From a virus (taxonomy: Duplodnaviria > Heunggongvirae > Uroviricota > Caudoviricetes), in IMG/VR virus record IMGVR_UViG_2711768037_000005, positions 1-64,000 of that record: a stretch of DNA of 64,000 nucleotides, one strand, 5' to 3'. Both the position numbers and the translations under genes were made by a program. The number at the start of each line of letters is the position of its first letter. The stretch's first letter is position 1. The notes under the pieces are model-generated. The model ran no database searches, had not been told where the DNA came from, and saw only the letters and a program-made list of their open reading frames with translations. Below, one piece after another: positions 40,702-48,017 of the stretch.

Positions 40702-43017
40702 ATGATAAGCATCGTAAAACGTAACGGCCAAACAGAGCCGTTATCCGAAGAAAAATACAACCGCGTCGTAATGTATGGCGTAGAAGGCATTCGTGGCGTA
40801 AGCGCATCCGCTGTAGCAATGGGAGCTGCGACCAGCATTTTTGATGGGATGACCACCAGCCAGTTGCATGAGGCTTTGGTTAAATCTGCCGCTGATTTGA
40901 TCTCACCAGAAGCACCAAATTACTCACAGGTGGCTGCCTGCCTGAACATTTTTAAAATCCGCAAAGATGCCTTCGGTCGTTACGACTATCCGAACTTCTA
41001 CCAACACATTGTCAAGAACGTTAACAAGGGCGTTTATGACAAGGATTTGCTGACACATTATTCGTTTGAAGAGATCGAAGAACTCGGCAATTACATTAAG
41101 CCGAAACGTGACGATCTTTTTGGCTATGCAGCTACGGTGCAGTTGCAAAGCAAATACCTCGTTCAAAACCGTGTTACAGGTGAGATTCATGAGGGGCCGC
41201 AACATATCTATATGCTGGTAGGCATGTGTCTGTTCCAGAATTGGGAAGACGACTGCGCTGGCAAAACACGTATGGAGATGGTCAAAGGTTTCTATGACGT
41301 TACAAGTACGTTCAAACTGTCTCTGCCTACACCAATCATGGCCGGCGTCCGTACTCCAACCCGTCAGTTCTCCAGTTGTGTGCTGATTGAGTCTGGCGAT
41401 AGTCTGAAAGGGATTAGTGCAGCTTCAGCCGCAATTATCGACTACGTTTCACGTCGTGCTGGAATTGGTATTGGTTTTGGCCGTATCCGTGCGCTGGGCA
41501 GCGAGATCCGCAATGGTGAAGCCACCCATACCGGAGTTATTCCATTCCTGAAGCATTTCCAGACGGCTGTTAAATCTTGTTCGCAAGGTGGTGTTCGTGG
41601 TGGCGCAGCAACAGCGTTTTACCCGATCTGGCATCTTGAAGTTGAAAGTCTGCTGGTGGTGAAAAATAACCGTGGTATTGATGAAAACCGCGTTCGCCAT
41701 CTTGATTACGGCGTCATGAGTAACCGTCTAATGTACCGTCGACTCGTCAGAAGCGAGAACATCACTCTGTTCAGCCCGCATGATGTGCCTGATATGTACG
41801 AAGCCTTCTTCACAGACCAGGATCTGTTTGAAAAGCTGTACCATAAATACGAAGCCGATGATTCAATTCGCAAGAAGTCAGTACCTGCCATTGAGCTGTT
41901 CTCATCTCTGATGCAGGAACGAGCGTCCACGGGCCGAATTTATATTGCGAACGTCGATCATATTAATGAGCATGGCGCTTTCATTCCTGCTCTTGCACCT
42001 GTCCGCCAGTCAAACCTGTGCATGGAGATCACTCTACCCACTCGTCCACTGGCATTTACCGACGACCCGAACGGTGAGATCGCGCTATGCACTTTATCCG
42101 CTTTTAACCTCGGAGCCATCCGTTCACTGGAGTCTCTTAAAGAGGTGGCGTTCTATGCCGTTGCTGCACTGGATTCGTTACTGGATTATCAAGACTATCC
42201 GATGGAGGCAGCCGAAGTGCCTGCCAAAGCTCGTCGTAGCTTGGGAATTGGTGTAACCAACTTTGCTTATTACCTGGCAAAGAATGGCGTTCGTTATTCT
42301 GATACCGCTGGCAATAAACTGGTGCATGAAACGTTCGAAGCTATCCAGTATTACCTTCTTGACGCCAGCTGCCGACTTGCCGAAGCAAAAGGTGAGTGTG
42401 ACTGGTTTGAGCAGACCAAGTACGCAATTGGTCAGTTGCCGATCGACCATTACCGTTCTTCATTAGACGAAAGTGGCGAAACCAACTTTGAGTTAAAGAT
42501 GCCGTGGGAAGAACTGCGTGAACGTATTGCAAAATACGGCCTTCGCAACTCCACACTGACGGCACAAATGCCATGCGAGACTTCCAGCCAGATCACTAAT
42601 TCCACCAACGGCATCGAACCGCCTCGTGGCCCGGTGTCAGTGAAATCTTCTAAGGACGGCATCGTCAAGATGGTCGTGCCTGAGTTTGAAAAACTGAAGG
42701 AACAGTATGAATACCTGTGGGATATGCCGGACAACCGCGGCTATCTGACAAAGGTGGCGATCATCCAGAAGTTCTTTGACCAGGCTATTTCAGCCAATAC
42801 CAACTATGACCCTTCTCGCTTTGAAGGCGATAAAGTCCCAATGATGACGCTACTGTCAGATTTGCTTCTCGCCTACAAGATGGGAGTTAAAACGCTTTAC
42901 TACCACAACACCAGAGATGGGGCAGGAAAGCGTGATGACGACGAACCGCAGAATCCACTGACGCAAGCTGTAGCCGTCGAGCCAGAAGATGAGTGCGACG
43001 GGGCCTGCAAAATCTGA
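40702..43017 (+). CDS. nrdA: ribonucleotide reductase class Ia alpha subunit
   Basis: Near-colinear with E. coli NrdA by eye (e.g. LVQNRVTGEI, QFSSCVLIE, GGVRGGAATAFYPIWHLEVESLL, C-terminal CxxxxACKI tail); 771 aa. Confidence 0.9.
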   Translation: MISIVKRNGQTEPLSEEKYNRVVMYGVEGIRGVSASAVAMGAATSIFDGMTTSQLHEALVKSAADLISPEAPNYSQVAACLNIFKIRKDAFGRYDYPNFYQHIVKNVNKGVYDKDLLTHYSFEEIEELGNYIKPKRDDLFGYAATVQLQSKYLVQNRVTGEIHEGPQHIYMLVGMCLFQNWEDDCAGKTRMEMVKGFYDVTSTFKLSLPTPIMAGVRTPTRQFSSCVLIESGDSLKGISAASAAIIDYVSRRAGIGIGFGRIRALGSEIRNGEATHTGVIPFLKHFQTAVKSCSQGGVRGGAATAFYPIWHLEVESLLVVKNNRGIDENRVRHLDYGVMSNRLMYRRLVRSENITLFSPHDVPDMYEAFFTDQDLFEKLYHKYEADDSIRKKSVPAIELFSSLMQERASTGRIYIANVDHINEHGAFIPALAPVRQSNLCMEITLPTRPLAFTDDPNGEIALCTLSAFNLGAIRSLESLKEVAFYAVAALDSLLDYQDYPMEAAEVPAKARRSLGIGVTNFAYYLAKNGVRYSDTAGNKLVHETFEAIQYYLLDASCRLAEAKGECDWFEQTKYAIGQLPIDHYRSSLDESGETNFELKMPWEELRERIAKYGLRNSTLTAQMPCETSSQITNSTNGIEPPRGPVSVKSSKDGIVKMVVPEFEKLKEQYEYLWDMPDNRGYLTKVAIIQKFFDQAISANTNYDPSRFEGDKVPMMTLLSDLLLAYKMGVKTLYYHNTRDGAGKRDDDEPQNPLTQAVAVEPEDECDGACKI

Positions 43018-43122: not shown

Positions 43123-44265
43123 ATGTCATATTCAACGTTCCGTTTGGGTGCTAATGATGCAACCAAAGAGCCTATGTTCCTCGGACAATCTGTCAACGTG
43201 GCACGTTACGATCAGCAAAAATACCGTGATTTTGAAAAGTTGATTGAACGTCAATTGTCTTTCTTCTGGCGGCCGGAAGAAGTTGATATTTCGAGCGATC
43301 GTATCGACTTCAACACGAAGCTGCGGGACCACGAACGTCACATTTTTCTGAGCAATCTCCGTTATCAAACGTTACTCGATTCAGTTCAGGGACGTAGCCC
43401 AAATGCAACGCTGCTGCCGCTTATCTCTATTCCTGAACTGGAAACGTGGGTTGAAACATGGTCTTTCTCTGAGACTATCCATAGCCGCAGCTACACCCAC
43501 ATTATTCGTGGCATGGTGGACGATCCGAGCATTGTTTTTGACGGTATTGTTACGGATGAAGAAATCATCAACCGAGCGATCAGTATCTCTGCTGAATATG
43601 ACAGGCTTTATGGGATGACCTGCGAGCGCCAGTCGTTAGGTGAGAAAGAGTTTGAACGTCTGTACGTAAATGAATATGGCTGGGAGCCATATCCTTTGCA
43701 CCGTCAGCTTTTCCGCACGTTGGTGTCCATTAATGCGCTTGAGGCGATCCGTTTCTATGTAAGTTTTGCATGTACGTTTGCCTTTGGCGAACGGAAGTTG
43801 CTTGAGGGTAACACCAAAATTATGCGCTTTATTGCCCGTGATGAAGCTCTGCATTGCGAAGGAACTGAACGCATGATCCGCTTCATGCGTACCGGTCGCG
43901 AAGGTTTATTGTGGAAAGAGATTGCTGCTGATGAAGAAAACGTCATTTACGACACCATGAAATCAGTCGCCGAACAAGAAATGAACTGGGCAGACTATCT
44001 CTTCAAAGACGGTTCGATGATTGGTTTAAACGCGGATATTCTCAAAACCTATGTAAAATACCGCACCAATCTGGCTATGAATCGTCTTGGCCTGAAGGCT
44101 TTATTTCCAGAAGTTACCACTGATCCGCTGGTCTGGATGAACAAGTGGTTGTTAACCGACACACTGCAAATTGCACCACAAGAGGCAGAGCAAAGCACAT
44201 ATCTGGTAGGTCAGATCGATTCTACCGTGGATAAGGCTTCTCTAAGCCAGTTTGCAGACCTGTAA
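43123..44265 (+). CDS. nrdB: ribonucleotide reductase class Ia beta subunit
   Basis: Very close to E. coli NrdB ([38 protein letters not shown]); start at MSYSTF with AAAGGAAAAACACATG context, not the ORF-track 43087. Confidence 0.9.
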
Positions 44266-44342: not shown

Positions 44343-45221
44343 ATGAACTTTACCAAACTGACTGACCACCTGAAACTTGCCACCGATCGACTCATTGGAT
44401 TTAAGCCAGAACCATATGAGTTGCATGAAGGTCATGGTGTAGCTACTGAAAGTATTTACAAGATGGTCGATCAGTTTCATGAACTCTTCCAGCATCCGAG
44501 ACGCGTTATGCCGACACCAGAGCTGCTTCGTCTCCGTGCAAGCCTGATTCATGAAGAAGCTGTAGTGGAAGGTATTCCAGCCGCAATGAATGGGGATATT
44601 GAGCAACTGCTGGATGCAATGGCCGACTTTTTATACGTTGGTATTGGTACGATGGTCGCCATCAAAGGTGGTATTTCTACCGGCATGACCTATTACACGC
44701 AGGAACAGAGCATTGATCGCTTTATGCAGACAATTTTTGTGCCTGGTAACACTGTTTTCGATGATATGGCAATGCCATTTCAGGAAGCTCGTGAGGCGTC
44801 ATGTATGCTCGAAGAGCTGGCAGATAAACTTGAGAACAAGACTGTTAAGGATTCTGAGCTGATTCAGGAACTGCGCCGTGTCATGAACAAAATCTATGTG
44901 GCGTGCATGATGACCTATCGACTGGCTGATTTCCTCGGTATCAATGTAGTTGAGCTGGTTGGCGAAATTCATCGGTCTAACATGACAAAATTATGGCCTG
45001 CTGATGTCGAGGAACGTCGCCAGGCTGTGGCCAACTGCAAATACGACTCTTCAGATCTGGGATTCCGCCATGCTGATGGCACCGATAAGATGATCGGTTT
45101 TCGAATTTCCGATGGAAAGATTCTGAAGTCTCCAACCTATAGTGATGTAGATTTATCCTCCTTTGTTGAGCAAGCTAAAGCCTCTGCAATGTATGAAATG
45201 ATAAAAAATAATTGTAGGTGA
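44343..45221 (+). CDS. hypothetical protein; possible MazG-like all-alpha NTP pyrophosphohydrolase
   Basis: Weak resemblance of IHEEAVVEGIPAAMNGDIEQLLDAMADFLYVG to MazG EExxE...D metal-binding helix pair; sits in the nucleotide-metabolism block. Confidence 0.3.
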   Translation: MNFTKLTDHLKLATDRLIGFKPEPYELHEGHGVATESIYKMVDQFHELFQHPRRVMPTPELLRLRASLIHEEAVVEGIPAAMNGDIEQLLDAMADFLYVGIGTMVAIKGGISTGMTYYTQEQSIDRFMQTIFVPGNTVFDDMAMPFQEAREASCMLEELADKLENKTVKDSELIQELRRVMNKIYVACMMTYRLADFLGINVVELVGEIHRSNMTKLWPADVEERRQAVANCKYDSSDLGFRHADGTDKMIGFRISDGKILKSPTYSDVDLSSFVEQAKASAMYEMIKNNCR

Positions 45222-45354
45222 TTATCTATTAGTGTATATTTGATTTGCGTATAAAACTCTGGAACGACTATTCTTTTTGGTGGCCTATGGCCACCATTTT
45301 TTTTATCTATCTGGCCTTGTTCCCTCAATAAATGTAAACTCACGCAATGAATAA

Positions 45355-46485
45355 GTGGTTACTTATCTTTGTGAGGTTTTTGTGTCACTCCTTTTGAATC
45401 GTGAGCATACGAACGGTCAGGTAACAAACGCATCGTATGCAAAAGTTATTGAGACGGTGCTTAAAAGCGGCGTGCAGGCTGATGATCGCACAGGCACTGG
45501 TACTTTAAGCACCTGCTACGTTCCCTCTTACTACATGCTTACTGGTGGGACTGTGCCGCTTATTTCTGGAAAGGCGGTAAATCTTAAGCCACTGCTTGTC
45601 GAACTTGAGTGGTATCTGAAAGGCACGGGCAACATCCAATTTCTCAAGGATAACGGCGTTAAGATTTGGGATGCATGGGCCGATGAGAATGGCGATTTGG
45701 GGCCGGTTTACGGTAAGCAGTGGCGTCGATGGGAAGATACCCGCATCGTGAGCCATAGTGAATATCTGAGCAAGATCGCTACTTTCCGTGAACGCGGGTA
45801 CAAAGTCGAGGGATACCTGGGTATCAGTGAAGATCGCGTAGTGCTGTCCCGTGAAATCGATCAGCTACAGCGTATTGTCGATACACTGCGCACGAACCCT
45901 ACCGATCGTCGCATCATGCTTAACGCATGGAACGTAGGCGAGCTTGAGGATATGAAACTGCCACCTTGCCACTTTGTCTTCTCTTTGTGGAGTCGTGAGC
46001 TGGATTTTGAAACCCGTTTAACGATGGCAACTGACATTGGTCTTCAACACAGTCGCCTCGGTTACGAGTCTATCTACACCAAGATGCTATACGATCTGGA
46101 GATGGACGGCAGTGTTACTGAAGCTGAACTGGATGAACTTGGAATCCCCAAACGCATCCTCAACTCCTGCCTCGTACAGCGTAGCGTAGACACTTTTGTT
46201 GGTATGCCATTCAATATTGCTGGCTATGGCATTCTCACTCATTTTCTCGCGAAGATTACGGGTCACATGGCCGGTGCATTTGTGCATTTTGGCTTTGACG
46301 TGCATTTGTACAACAACCACATGGAAGGTGTGTGTGAGCTAATGAAACGACAGGCTCCAGAGCATTCAGATCCGGTCGTTATTTTCCCTCATGAATGGTC
46401 AGAGTTGGATGATTTCAAATGGGACGAGGTTTTAATTCTTGGCTATGACCCTCTACCGTGGATCAAGGTTCCAGTGGCGGTGTGA
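45355..46485 (+). CDS. thyA: thymidylate synthase (ThyA family) carrying two internal insertions
   Basis: DRTGTGT, WDAWADENGDLGPVYGKQWRRW, RRIMLNAWNVGEL, catalytic LPPCH, C-terminal GYDPLPWIKVPVAV all align with E. coli ThyA; about 30 and 50 extra residues at two sites; start codon ambiguous (GTG 45355 or 45382). Confidence 0.85.
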   Translation: MVTYLCEVFVSLLLNREHTNGQVTNASYAKVIETVLKSGVQADDRTGTGTLSTCYVPSYYMLTGGTVPLISGKAVNLKPLLVELEWYLKGTGNIQFLKDNGVKIWDAWADENGDLGPVYGKQWRRWEDTRIVSHSEYLSKIATFRERGYKVEGYLGISEDRVVLSREIDQLQRIVDTLRTNPTDRRIMLNAWNVGELEDMKLPPCHFVFSLWSRELDFETRLTMATDIGLQHSRLGYESIYTKMLYDLEMDGSVTEAELDELGIPKRILNSCLVQRSVDTFVGMPFNIAGYGILTHFLAKITGHMAGAFVHFGFDVHLYNNHMEGVCELMKRQAPEHSDPVVIFPHEWSELDDFKWDEVLILGYDPLPWIKVPVAV

Positions 46486-46486
46486 T

Positions 46487-46900
46487 ATGGCAAGAGGTAT
46501 GTATGTCTTATGCGAAATTGAAGGTGTGCTGGCAAATGCCAGCCATCGTAAATCAGTATCTGACGCGGATGCAGGCCAGCTCATTGCCGGTGATGAACTC
46601 ATTTTCCCCACCAGCCGTATGTTGCGTGGTTTTGCTCGCTCAGGGGCTGAAGTGGTGCTTATCAGTAGCCGCTCTGAAACTCTTGAAGCGCCAACTAAAC
46701 GATGGCTGAAAGATTTTGGCGTTGATTATGACTGGCTTCATCTCGTACCGAATGGCACCAGTTATGAGAAGCATATTAAGCGCACATTAGCGGAGCATAA
46801 AGGCGATCTGCTTATCGCTGCGCTGGTGCACGATCCTCGACTCCGTGCCGCTTTAGCCGACTCTCACCATCGACCGGTCATCTATGAGGTGAGCAAATGA
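46487..46900 (+). CDS. hypothetical protein
   Basis: In-frame ATG at 46487 just after thyA stop (ORF track 46439); translationally coupled to DHFR gene. Confidence 0.3.
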   Translation: MARGMYVLCEIEGVLANASHRKSVSDADAGQLIAGDELIFPTSRMLRGFARSGAEVVLISSRSETLEAPTKRWLKDFGVDYDWLHLVPNGTSYEKHIKRTLAEHKGDLLIAALVHDPRLRAALADSHHRPVIYEVSK

Positions 46901-47373
46901 AGATGATCGCTGCTGTTGGCCGTAACTATGAGATCGGCATAGCGAATGAACTCCCCTGGCGTTGTTCTACCGATCTGAAGCTATTTAAGAGACTCACCAA
47001 AAACGCCACTGTCGTTATGGGGCGTAAAACGATGGAAAGTCTCAAACGCCCTCTTCCAGAGCGTCATAACCTCGTTTTGACGCGCTCTCATGGCTTTGTA
47101 CCAAATGGATTCTACCCTGCTGGTGTGGATGATGTGTTGCGATTACCAGAGCCTGTGTGGGTGATTGGCGGGGAACAAATTTACTCGCTATTCATGCCGC
47201 ATGTTGAAGAGATTTGGCTCTCCCACATCGGCGTTGATGTACCAAACGCCGATGCATTCTTCCCGGCAAGCATGATGCGTAACTTAGGCTTTGTGCCTGT
47301 TGAAACAGCTTATACCCAACGAGCCAGCGAGGAAGAGCCTGGCTTTTCGCAGATCGTATACAGAAGGTCGTAA
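46897..47373 (+). CDS. dihydrofolate reductase
   Basis: MIAAVGRNYEIGIANELPW and VVMGRKTMESLKRPLPER match the DHFR N-terminal fold; 158 aa; adjacent to thyA. Confidence 0.8.
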   Translation: MKMIAAVGRNYEIGIANELPWRCSTDLKLFKRLTKNATVVMGRKTMESLKRPLPERHNLVLTRSHGFVPNGFYPAGVDDVLRLPEPVWVIGGEQIYSLFMPHVEEIWLSHIGVDVPNADAFFPASMMRNLGFVPVETAYTQRASEEEPGFSQIVYRRS

Positions 47374-48017
47374 TGGATTACCGGATTGGGATCACTGGTG
47401 CTCAGGGCAGTGGGAAAACAACCCTGGCTAAATATATCGACAAACATTACGGAATCCCTTACGTGGATGCTGGTGTCGGAAGTTTGATGAGCCGCCTCGG
47501 TGTTCGAGTAGGTGATTCTATGCCTCTATATGAGCGGCTTCAGATTCAAATGGAAATAGCAAAGCATATAGAGCTACTTACGCGTGGTGTTGAAGGCTTT
47601 GTTATCGATCGCACACCTGCTGATGTTATGGCCTACACGTTGGATTTGGTCGGCCATACAAATGAAGATCGGTGTATTGAGTTAGCCCTCGATATCGAAA
47701 AGTTTTGCCACAAAACTGCTATTTCAAACTTTAACGCCATTGCTGGCCTACGTCCGGGGGTCGCTCTCTCAGAGCGAGATTACTTGCGGTCACAACGAGC
47801 ATCATTAGACCGTCTGTATGTCGCTCGTATTGATGCGTTGATGTGCGGGGAACTGACAAAAATTCACCTGCATCCGCAAAGGGGAGATCTGCAAACCTTC
47901 GTCGTTTCCAACCGGTATCGCACAGTTGAAGCAAGAGCCAGATCAGTGATGAGAATGCTAGATAACGCTGTAGAAAAGATAGAAAACCGGTTCTGTGGCC
48001 GAGTGACCGTTCATTAG
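47373..48017 (+). CDS. P-loop NTPase, probable (deoxy)nucleotide kinase
   Basis: N-terminal Walker A IGITGAQGSGKTTLAK; size and context within nucleotide-metabolism genes. Confidence 0.4.
   Translation: MDYRIGITGAQGSGKTTLAKYIDKHYGIPYVDAGVGSLMSRLGVRVGDSMPLYERLQIQMEIAKHIELLTRGVEGFVIDRTPADVMAYTLDLVGHTNEDRCIELALDIEKFCHKTAISNFNAIAGLRPGVALSERDYLRSQRASLDRLYVARIDALMCGELTKIHLHPQRGDLQTFVVSNRYRTVEARARSVMRMLDNAVEKIENRFCGRVTVH

Follow-up and report, generated by a model that had tools for sequence, protein, structure and literature searches.

An uninterrupted open reading frame on the + strand (45355-46485, GTG start, 376 aa in the open reading frame list) of the window, by which is meant the whole 64,000-nucleotide stretch of viral DNA analysed here, encodes a protein resembling E. 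coli ThyA (264 aa; PDB 2TSC and 1TYS). In its probable 367-aa form (see below) it exceeds the latter by 103 residues, of which about 15 are N-terminal, 34 lie in the loop 102-107 and 51 in the hairpin 154-158. Which enzyme is this, and are its two internal segments artefacts, modifiers of its chemistry, or elaborations of its surface? The gene is the already annotated, ordinary ThyA-type thymidylate synthase of an SSU5-like phage-plasmid, and the enzyme is a canonical one that belongs to a widespread, insert-bearing phage variant. It is very probably a working synthase, the inserts of which are inherited, folded surface subdomains that leave the chemistry unaltered. Its enzymatic activity, its dimerisation and any role of the inserts are what we infer from the results below.

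The gene, its start and its active site

The protein is most likely shorter than the open reading frame. A GAGG Shine-Dalgarno motif read from the sequence (45373..45376, + strand) stands 5 nt before a GTG at 45382, and a start at this position, yielding 1104 nt and 367 aa, is annotated in SSU5 (SSU5_081), in Cyrano (CYRAN_72), and by RefSeq/PGAP. The thyA coding sequence is therefore most likely 45382..46485 (+ strand, 367 aa and a stop codon), so that the 376 aa originally put forward stand as the length of the open reading frame, but probably not as that of the protein. Residues are numbered below on the 367-aa protein unless stated otherwise.

Profile searches place this protein firmly among thymidylate synthases. 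It matches PF00303 (Thymidylat_synt) with E = 2.5e-78 and 263.4 bits, against a cutoff of 24.3, the Pfam match being split in two stretches; TIGR03284 with 219 bits, above its cutoff of 108.35; and phrog_160 with E = 8.8e-95 and 318.4 bits. The sequences of solved ThyA structures in the PDB are matched at E = 1e-63 to 4e-60. Four narrow NCBIfam equivalog models (NF0024xx) are missed (NF002497, for instance, scores 261 bits against a cutoff of 327), as expected of a divergent insert-bearing subfamily. The ThyX label of CYRAN_72 in the Cyrano record is a misnomer, as Pfam gives PF00303 only and no ThyX (Thy1) domain.

The fold is that of E. coli ThyA, with a core identity of 44% over the E. coli columns, and the model described below superimposes its core on the E. 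coli enzyme with a TM score of 0.94 normalised to the target. Twenty-five of the 28 catalytic and ligand-binding positions checked in E. coli ThyA are identical, the exceptions being H51N and the conservative I55L and I264V. Positions kept, in E. coli numbering, include R21, E58, W80, W83, Y94, R126, R127, C146 and H147, as well as R166, S167, D169, N177, H207 and Y209. The catalytic cysteine codon of the PPCH motif (45967..45969, + strand) encodes Cys196, which residue mapping equates with E. coli Cys146 and the column of which is invariant across 120 homologues. Together with His197, Glu74 and Tyr110, it makes up the P-C-H motif and the general-base network Glu58/Tyr94/His147; the Glu74 and Tyr110 columns are also invariant in the aligned homologues, and that of His197 shows one exception in 120. 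The phosphate-binding set is present as R36, R267, R176, R177 and S268 (Arg21, Arg166, Arg126', Arg127' and Ser167), the folate-site residues as I95, W96, W99 and F277 (Ile79, Trp80, Trp83 and Phe176), and the counterpart of Asn177 as Asn278, within PFNIAG. The latter residue sets the specificity for dUMP rather than dCMP, that is, for uracil over cytosine (PMC8670742). The C-terminus is PVAV, keeping the closing V-A-[IV] end (P-V-A-[IV] in the comparison with E. coli ThyA).

With such an active site, Cys196 would attack C6 of dUMP, and 5,10-methylene-tetrahydrofolate would give the one-carbon unit and the hydride, producing dTMP and dihydrofolate.

Nature and origin of the two inserts

The HMMER alignment to E. 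coli ThyA structures falls into three blocks, in which query residues 27-127, 165-212 and 270-376 of the 376-aa open reading frame pair with chain residues 3-102, 106-153 and 160-264, leaving 128-164 and 213-269 unmatched. Insert 1 (45736..45846, + strand; residues 119-155 of the 367-aa protein) amounts to about 34-37 aa and follows GKQWRRWE, in the loop corresponding to E. coli ThyA 102-107. Insert 2 (45991..46161, + strand; residues 204-260) amounts to about 51-57 aa and follows PPCHFVFSLW, at the tip of the beta hairpin corresponding to E. coli ThyA 154-158. MAFFT yields a net gain of 34 aa in the 101-109 loop and 51 aa in the 153-159 hairpin, besides the N-terminal extension and two indels of 1-2 aa. 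The original prediction, namely homology to ThyA across the core with about 30 and about 50 extra residues behind these two motifs, agrees with PF00303 and the three-block match, and its sizes and both anchors are right.

The AF2 monomer model has a mean pLDDT of 95.1 and a pTM of 0.93, and the structure prediction proposed at the outset thus folds both inserts with pLDDT >90. In the model, insert 1 is a small beta/alpha unit in which two short helices accompany an extended beta ribbon (strand 117-124, helices 125-130 and 132-137, strands 141-146 and 152-159; pLDDT at least 91), and insert 2 consists of three helices (209-225, 231-242 and 247-253; pLDDT at least 96). Foldseek against the PDB found neither insert in solved structures, the best TMq being 0.71. 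Both segments are under purifying selection, pN lying far below pS in insert 1 (0.04-0.37 against 0.58-0.99) as in insert 2 (0.02-0.45 against 0.43-0.83). The surface elaborations proposed originally hence behave as folded ones, by pLDDT and pN alike.

Could the extra residues result from a mis-set frame, a sequencing error, an in-frame intron or a degenerate intein? Phage genes for thymidylate synthase are well known for harbouring introns, T4 td and that of Bacillus phage beta22 being examples (cited in PMC8541194), and such a reading has that precedent in its favour. The gene, however, is one unbroken open reading frame, the inserts of which are modelled as compact units, and copies 100% identical to it are found on independent complete plasmids of ~110 kb, in many separate assemblies. 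Furthermore, relatives in Salmonella and Klebsiella, at 63-89% protein identity, keep both the frame and the insert lengths. Identical plasmid copies and lengths kept over such divergence rule out an error of frame or sequencing, and with pN far below pS within the inserts, this whole family of explanations has virtually no chance of being right.

More specific origins of the inserts were also examined. No Rfam family, group I and group II introns included, was matched within the gene at E = 0.1, nor with the limit raised to E = 1. As the segments moreover evolve like protein-coding DNA, an intron in thyA was rejected; a scan of 45000-47000 returned two sub-threshold sRNA-like matches only, both at the upstream terminator. 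An intein or homing endonuclease was discarded as well, the inserts being of 37 and 57 aa against about 130 aa or more, and PF00303 being the only Pfam domain: the view that they are too short for either is borne out. The G+C content of both inserts equals that of the remaining gene and no meaningful direct or inverted repeats flank them, which leaves no footprint of a mobile element. Insert 2 does not seem to be borrowed from another protein either, since a search with this segment alone against 1.8 billion representatives found no homologue outside thymidylate synthase, its sole hits being one fragment of this very gene and two artefactual matches to repeat proteins.

The inserts are instead shared with other phage enzymes. 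The gene is found in 230 of 5,426 complete E. coli genomes (about 4%), and 232 of the 234 matching places are on plasmids. Beyond the SSU5-like elements, jumbo and phiKZ-like phages, such as SPN3US, Erwinia phage Machina, Cronobacter phage CR5 and Pseudomonas phage 201phi2-1 (B3FJL1), encode synthases with inserts at both sites. These are 37-41% identical to the query over 93-96% of its length, and their predicted structures match the whole query model, inserts included, with TMq values of 0.83-0.87, against 0.68 for E. coli ThyA. The insert lengths differ (about 5 to 42 extra residues at site 1, about 15 to 74 at site 2), with conserved frame motifs: DTR, RGY, SRE-x5-R and LD-x3-IP-x-R persist in relatives only 37-45% identical, and the last two are insert 2 motifs conserved in distant insert-bearing homologues. 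The inserts vary freely in length among relatives, as does insert 2 in its middle part. Both inserts occur in 66 homologues, insert 1 alone in 15, insert 2 alone in two, and neither in 32, counts that ignore phylogeny. No characterisation of the jumbo and phiKZ-like insert-bearing enzymes was found in the literature, and no description of these inserts in that on SSU5, jumbo phages, the small domain or phage-plasmids.

Surface insertions have precedents in this family. The thymidylate synthases of Lactobacillus casei and of eukaryotes carry them in the small domain, with catalysis unchanged. In the L. casei enzyme (316 aa), Trp83 and Gly89 (E. coli numbering) flank an insert of 50 aa, at a third site where the query is not expanded, and the eukaryotic enzymes have just eight extra residues at site 1. 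Unlike the query, both have nothing at the 154-158 hairpin. The inserts of the query are probably inherited, independently folded surface subdomains at two sites of the fold that tolerate changes in length.

Chemistry and the nucleotide operon

The original prediction had allowed for a changed substrate choice, possibly a hydroxymethylase-like activity. The protein would then be a pyrimidine hydroxymethylase producing 5-hydroxymethyl-dUMP or -dCMP for modified phage DNA, with inserts that admit water instead of hydride transfer. Phage homologues of ThyA do include such enzymes, and known dUMP hydroxymethylases are also long, reaching 383 aa in SPO1. However, the query keeps Asn177, which is an Asp in the dCMP enzymes, together with Trp80, Trp83, Tyr94, His147 and the C-terminal PVAV. 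A dCMP hydroxymethylase of the T4 gp42 type was rejected on that Asn and as no dCMP-hydroxymethylase PHROG is found among the matches. SPO1 gp29, a dUMP hydroxymethylase established by experiment (383 aa), belongs to the same superfamily and shares the catalytic cysteine and the Asn at the 177 equivalent; its identity to the query is nevertheless only 19% (E = 0.024). It has Met and Phe aligned with Trp80 and Trp83, has no inserts at the two sites, and is long because a C-terminal extension, about 150 aa in size and ending in ...YIRREE, replaces the PVAV terminus. gp29 scores 455.7 bits on phrog_5131, where the query scores 62.7, against 318.4 for the query on the thymidylate synthase profile phrog_160; a gp29-type enzyme was hence rejected too.

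The neighbourhood bears on the same question. Upstream of thyA, all on the + strand, are the ribonucleotide reductase genes nrdA (40702-43017) and nrdB (about 43123-44265), assigned from the open reading frames and from how the syntenic genes of SSU5 and Cyrano are annotated, and a MazG-like all-alpha NTP pyrophosphohydrolase gene (44343..45221; PF01503, 1.1e-8; phrog_671, 2.8e-48), the product of which has a weak PDB match to the MazG-like DR2231 (E = 0.002) and is possibly a dUTPase supplying dUMP. A hairpin resembling an intrinsic terminator (45278..45305, + strand; 8-bp stem, T8 tail) separates it from thyA. Downstream, starting one base past the thyA stop codon, comes a HAD-type phosphatase gene (46487..46900, + strand), encoding a homologue of the PNKP phosphatase domain (PF25109 at 1.1e-4, below the gathering score; phrog_5387; PDB match to Pnkp1 at 1.9e-5) with counterparts in SSU5_082 and CYRAN_73. 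The start of the dihydrofolate reductase (DHFR) gene (46897..47373, + strand; PF00186, 1.6e-34), two genes downstream of thyA, overlaps the stop of the HAD gene, the two being translationally coupled in the same operon. It is followed by a gene for a P-loop protein resembling nucleoside-monophosphate kinases (47373..48017, + strand; PF13521, 1.4e-9; phrog_2107 'thymidylate kinase', 4.8e-10); PDB matches are only weak, to adenylate and cytidylate kinases, and it is possibly a dTMP kinase. The order nrdA-nrdB-MazG-thyA-HAD-DHFR-kinase is conserved in nine of nine SSU5-like loci, and DHFR lies near thyA in all of them.

Hydroxymethyl-uracil phages encode a dTTPase/dUTPase, a dTMP phosphatase and a dNMP kinase (PMC8989533), a set to which the MazG-like, HAD and kinase genes bear a loose, superficial resemblance. 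A DHFR, on the other hand, is needed only if dihydrofolate is produced, as by thymidylate synthase, and a dUMP hydroxymethylase does without it (PMC4528723); no DHFR is annotated in the 30-kb stretch of SPO1 examined. Moreover, the element exists as a plasmid that draws on the nucleotide pools of the host for its replication. With the active site kept, DHFR two genes downstream, and gp29 distant, placed in another PHROG and insert-free, a hydroxymethylase finds no support and is very unlikely.

With a dTMP-forming enzyme, the dihydrofolate would be recycled by the DHFR, and the nrdAB, MazG-like, HAD and kinase-like genes probably form with thyA a module raising the dTTP supply for phage DNA replication. 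A similar link is found in phage T4, the td product of which (286 aa) is a phage-encoded ThyA working with a phage DHFR. In the jumbo and phiKZ-like phages this operon was not found, and the genome context is unlike that of the query. Among distant insert-bearing homologues, single-sequence phmmer, an insensitive search, revealed no conserved partner gene except an occasional DHFR.

Possible roles at the subunit interface

Since the AF2 model is that of a monomer, we infer from it where the inserts stand with respect to the partner subunit and to both active sites. Insert 1 would extend the beta ribbon of the small domain. Insert 2, with its three helices, would occupy the tip of the interface hairpin, at the dimer-interface rim; neither insert would change the active site. 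The residue just before insert 2 aligns with E. coli Tyr153, which we take to be the equivalent of human Tyr202. In the human enzyme, Tyr202 belongs to the accessible perimeter of the dimer interface, where it stacks against Phe59' of the other subunit (PMC9831607). Otherwise conserved residues of the interface strands (F30, G31, Q33, Q151, F152 and C161) are replaced in the SSU5-like clade, as is the residue pair aligned with Tyr153 and Phe30 of E. coli, and the quaternary behaviour could consequently differ from that of E. coli ThyA. Our preferred guess is that the inserts serve to stabilise the contacts between subunits or to extend them, or else as docking sites for other proteins, with the chemistry unaltered. 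The altered partner binding suggested originally is possible.

The T4 thymidylate synthase also has surface insertions, probably smaller than those of the query and differently placed. They have been proposed to provide contacts within the dNTP-synthesising complex of this phage. The complex itself is named in PMC8541194. In the same way, the inserts of the query might be functional modules rather than neutral decoration, with dTMP synthesis kept: they might recruit DHFR, ribonucleotide reductase or the kinase into a phage dNTP-synthesising complex, or, with the remodelled interface strands, insulate the phage enzyme by blocking mixed dimers with the host ThyA. Purifying selection and high-confidence folding of both inserts, frame motifs that persist among divergent relatives, the phylogeny-blind co-occurrence of the two inserts, and the replaced Tyr153/Phe30 pair and other interface positions all argue for such a function, as does the position of insert 2 at the rim, if Tyr153 is presumed to equal Tyr202. 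However, no docking partner was identified and the gene neighbourhoods of the distant insert-bearing enzymes differ, and free variation in insert length and in the central part of insert 2 is in keeping with an elaboration under loose constraint. Docking or insulation appears unlikely. Quite unlikely is also that the inserts and the remodelled interface strands make up a purpose-built interaction surface, be it a tether for substrate channelling or a block to mixed dimers. Inherited surface subdomains on a canonical synthase remain the favoured reading.

The predicted chemistry of the enzyme would be ordinary in either case. Thymidylate synthase is among the best-studied enzymes and is a drug target, and the insert-bearing form is common, being carried by about 4% of complete E. 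coli genomes via SSU5-like phage-plasmids and by many jumbo phages. If the inserts are neutral elaborations, their presence is merely a note for annotators. If they form an interaction surface, thymidylate synthases of this kind would be a structural class specific to phages, with new behaviour at the quaternary or regulatory level. Should they mediate dimer or partner contacts, they would serve as a natural experiment on the dimer-interface rim, a region at which dimer-destabilising drugs against the human enzyme are now aimed.

Catalytic core and active site

The thyA reading frame at 45355-46485 (+) is uninterrupted and encodes 376 residues from its GTG, the length given in the original prediction. 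The frame stands but the start probably does not: a GAGG ribosome-binding site (45373-45376, +) lies upstream of a GTG at 45382, which is the start in all public annotations and yields a 367-residue protein. By every sequence criterion tested, this product classes as a ThyA family member. It matches Pfam PF00303 at 2.5e-78 and solved ThyA structures with E-values of 1e-63 to 4e-60; the structure matches fall into three blocks, leaving residues 128-164 and 213-269 (376-aa numbering) unmatched. MAFFT alignment with E. coli ThyA places a net 34 additional residues after GKQWRRWE, in the loop corresponding to E. coli 102-107, and a net 51 after PPCHFVFSLW, in the hairpin corresponding to E. coli 154-158. 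Since the frame is real, the ThyA matches are gapped, and the alignment contains both insertions, the first description of a ThyA core with about 30 extra residues after GKQWRRW and about 50 after PPCH was correct.

Of 28 E. coli ThyA catalytic or ligand-binding positions checked, 25 are identical, the exceptions being H51N, I55L, and I264V. Those kept include Arg21, Glu58, Trp80, Trp83, Tyr94, Arg126, Arg127, Cys146, His147, Arg166, Ser167, Asp169, Asn177, His207, and Tyr209 (E. coli numbering), and the C-terminus is PVAV. Asn177 is the determinant of uracil over cytosine (PMC8670742). The predicted chemistry of the enzyme is almost certainly ordinary.

Conservation, spread and ancestry of the insertions

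The window is part of an SSU5-like phage-plasmid. Its thymidylate synthase shares 99.5% identity with the Escherichia phage Cyrano counterpart, 85.7% with that of Salmonella phage SSU5, and 76% with those of several Klebsiella phage-plasmids. Copies of the 1104-nt gene with 100% identity sit on non-mobilizable plasmids 108-114 kb in size. Among 5,426 complete E. coli genomes, 230 have the gene (232 of the 234 matching places being on plasmids), and so do 372 PLSDB plasmids, every matching plasmid copy bearing the plain label "thymidylate synthase". The Cyrano orthologue CYRAN_72 (L083:9028-10131) is labelled 'ThyX Thymidylate synthase', wrongly, because the protein is of ThyA type (PF00303 only).

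An artefact or a mobile element can be ruled out as the source of the inserts (residues 119-155 and 204-260, 367-aa numbering). Relatives as distant as about 60% identity keep the insert lengths. When codons of the window and eight SSU5-like loci are aligned, pN inside the inserts (0.02-0.45) is far below pS (0.43-0.99), as it is in the core, so that the segments must be translated and selected as protein; the same observations speak against a mis-set frame or a sequencing error. An Rfam scan found no intron, no repeats flank the inserts, and their G+C (0.51 and 0.48) matches that of the whole gene (0.49). Pfam detects no second domain in the protein, in keeping with the initial view that these are not inteins or homing endonucleases. 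Insert 2 alone, searched against 1.8 billion representative proteins, retrieved nothing beyond a fragment of this gene and two artefactual matches to repeat proteins.

From 5.8 billion proteins searched came 113 full-length homologues, surveyed together with the query and E. coli ThyA. As raw counts that ignore phylogeny, 66 sequences have inserts at both sites, 15 at site 1 only, 2 at site 2 only, and 32 at neither. The extra residues number about 5 to 42 at site 1 and about 15 to 74 at site 2. Conserved motifs border the inserts, W-x-D-T-[RK] and R-G-[YF] for insert 1 and S-R-E-x5-R and L-D-x3-[IV]-P-x-R for insert 2, a pattern that favours inheritance over several separate gains. A core-only neighbour-joining tree puts the query in a group made up entirely of two-insert sequences; its deeper nodes are not resolved. 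Beyond phage-plasmids, SPN3US-like and Erwinia jumbo phages encode the nearest relatives of the query (37-41% identity). The L. casei enzyme carries its small-domain insert at a third site, where the query is not expanded. A two-insert thymidylate synthase of 353 residues from Photobacterium ganghwense, 51% identical to the query, is encoded on a 2.03-Mb contig, as against contigs of the ~100-kb phage-plasmid size; its gene could lie in the chromosome proper or in an integrated prophage.

Operon context and the hydroxymethylase alternative

The gene lies in a tightly packed operon (nrdA, nrdB, MazG-like NTP pyrophosphohydrolase, thyA, HAD phosphatase, DHFR, NMP-kinase-like) conserved in 9/9 SSU5-like loci examined. 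As a group, the nearby pyrophosphohydrolase, phosphatase, and kinase are reminiscent of the enzymes that hydroxymethyl-uracil phages encode (PMC8989533), and the query was therefore compared directly with SPO1 gp29, an experimentally defined dUMP hydroxymethylase. The two share 19% identity (E = 0.024). On phrog_5131, gp29 scores 456 bits and the query 63, whereas phrog_160, the thymidylate synthase family, gives the query 318 bits. The loops of gp29 are short at both sites where the query is expanded, its extra length being a C-terminal extension; it aligns Met and Phe at ThyA Trp80 and Trp83, and lacks the PVAV terminus. The query keeps both Trp residues and this terminus. The inserts are therefore rejected as a hydroxymethylase signature. 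Furthermore, thymidylate synthase makes dihydrofolate and needs DHFR, whereas a hydroxymethylase makes tetrahydrofolate, rendering DHFR unnecessary (PMC4528723). With DHFR in the operon and Asn177 also kept, the hydroxymethylase-like activity originally proposed is not borne out, and the simplest reading of the operon is a dTTP-supply module centred on a canonical synthase.

The HAD phosphatase starts one base past the thyA stop (46485/46487), and the HAD/DHFR (46897-46900) and DHFR/kinase (47373) junctions likewise abut or overlap, implying translational coupling. A strong intrinsic-terminator-like hairpin (45278-45305, GGTGGCC-TAT-GGCCACC then T8) separates the MazG-like gene from thyA, so that thyA-HAD-DHFR-kinase may be transcribed as a separate unit; the stretch between hairpin and thyA yielded no sigma-70-like promoter. 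The HAD gene separates thyA from DHFR in every SSU5-like locus, and its product is a homologue of the PNKP phosphatase domain (phrog_5387, function unknown). In the MazG-like protein (44343-45221, 292 aa), the PRA-PH/MazG match is confined to residues 42-106, the remaining ~180 residues having no Pfam or NCBIfam match; the protein is weakly similar to Deinococcus MazG-like DR2231 (E = 0.002). The NMP-kinase-like gene of Cyrano carries the label 'ABC transporter ATP-binding protein' in its record.

Predicted fold and dimer interface

An AlphaFold2 model from a 100-sequence alignment has a mean pLDDT of 95.1 and a pTM of 0.93, with pLDDT >= 91 in every 10-residue block of both inserts. On the fold, both sites are at the surface. 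For insert 1, the model gives a long beta ribbon plus a pair of short helices (E117-124, H125-130, H132-137, E141-146, E152-159). For insert 2, it gives three helices (H209-225, H231-242, H247-253) topping the tip of the hairpin made by the catalytic-cysteine strand and the next strand. The best PDB matches are 264-residue ThyA chains (TM 0.94 target-normalised, only 0.68 query-normalised). No PDB entry exceeds a query-normalised TM of 0.71, and these subdomains are therefore absent from all solved thymidylate synthases. Among viral structure predictions, the query-normalised TM rises to 0.83-0.87 for large synthases from phiKZ-like and other jumbo phages, including a 471-residue protein and the 457-residue Pseudomonas phage 201phi2-1 enzyme, which thus provide structural counterparts of the inserts.

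Trp203 (367-aa numbering), directly before insert 2, aligns with E. coli Tyr153, which we take to be human Tyr202, E. coli Arg126 presumably being human Arg175. In the human dimer, Tyr202 occupies the accessible edge of the interface, where it stacks on Phe59' of the other subunit and is close to Arg175, a residue that extends into the active site of the partner (PMC9831607). By this analogy, insert 2 should emerge at the interface rim and could add subunit contacts. Several positions that hardly vary across the rest of the ThyA enzymes, whether these carry inserts or not, are substituted in the SSU5-like clade alone (F30 by C or S, G31 by F or Y, Q33 by P or S, Q151 by S, Y or G, F152 by L or V, C161 by S). 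Given these interface-strand replacements, the dimer interface may have been remodelled; insulation from the host ThyA sharing the cell with the plasmid-borne enzyme would be a speculative explanation. K18 and S160 (E. coli numbering) are also altered in these strands. That the inserts themselves act as docking or insulation modules is improbable.

No description of these inserts turned up in the literature searched. Hundreds of public records already carry the gene as an annotated thymidylate synthase, and its product is a well-represented but uncharacterised structural variant of ThyA with two conserved, folded surface subdomains.
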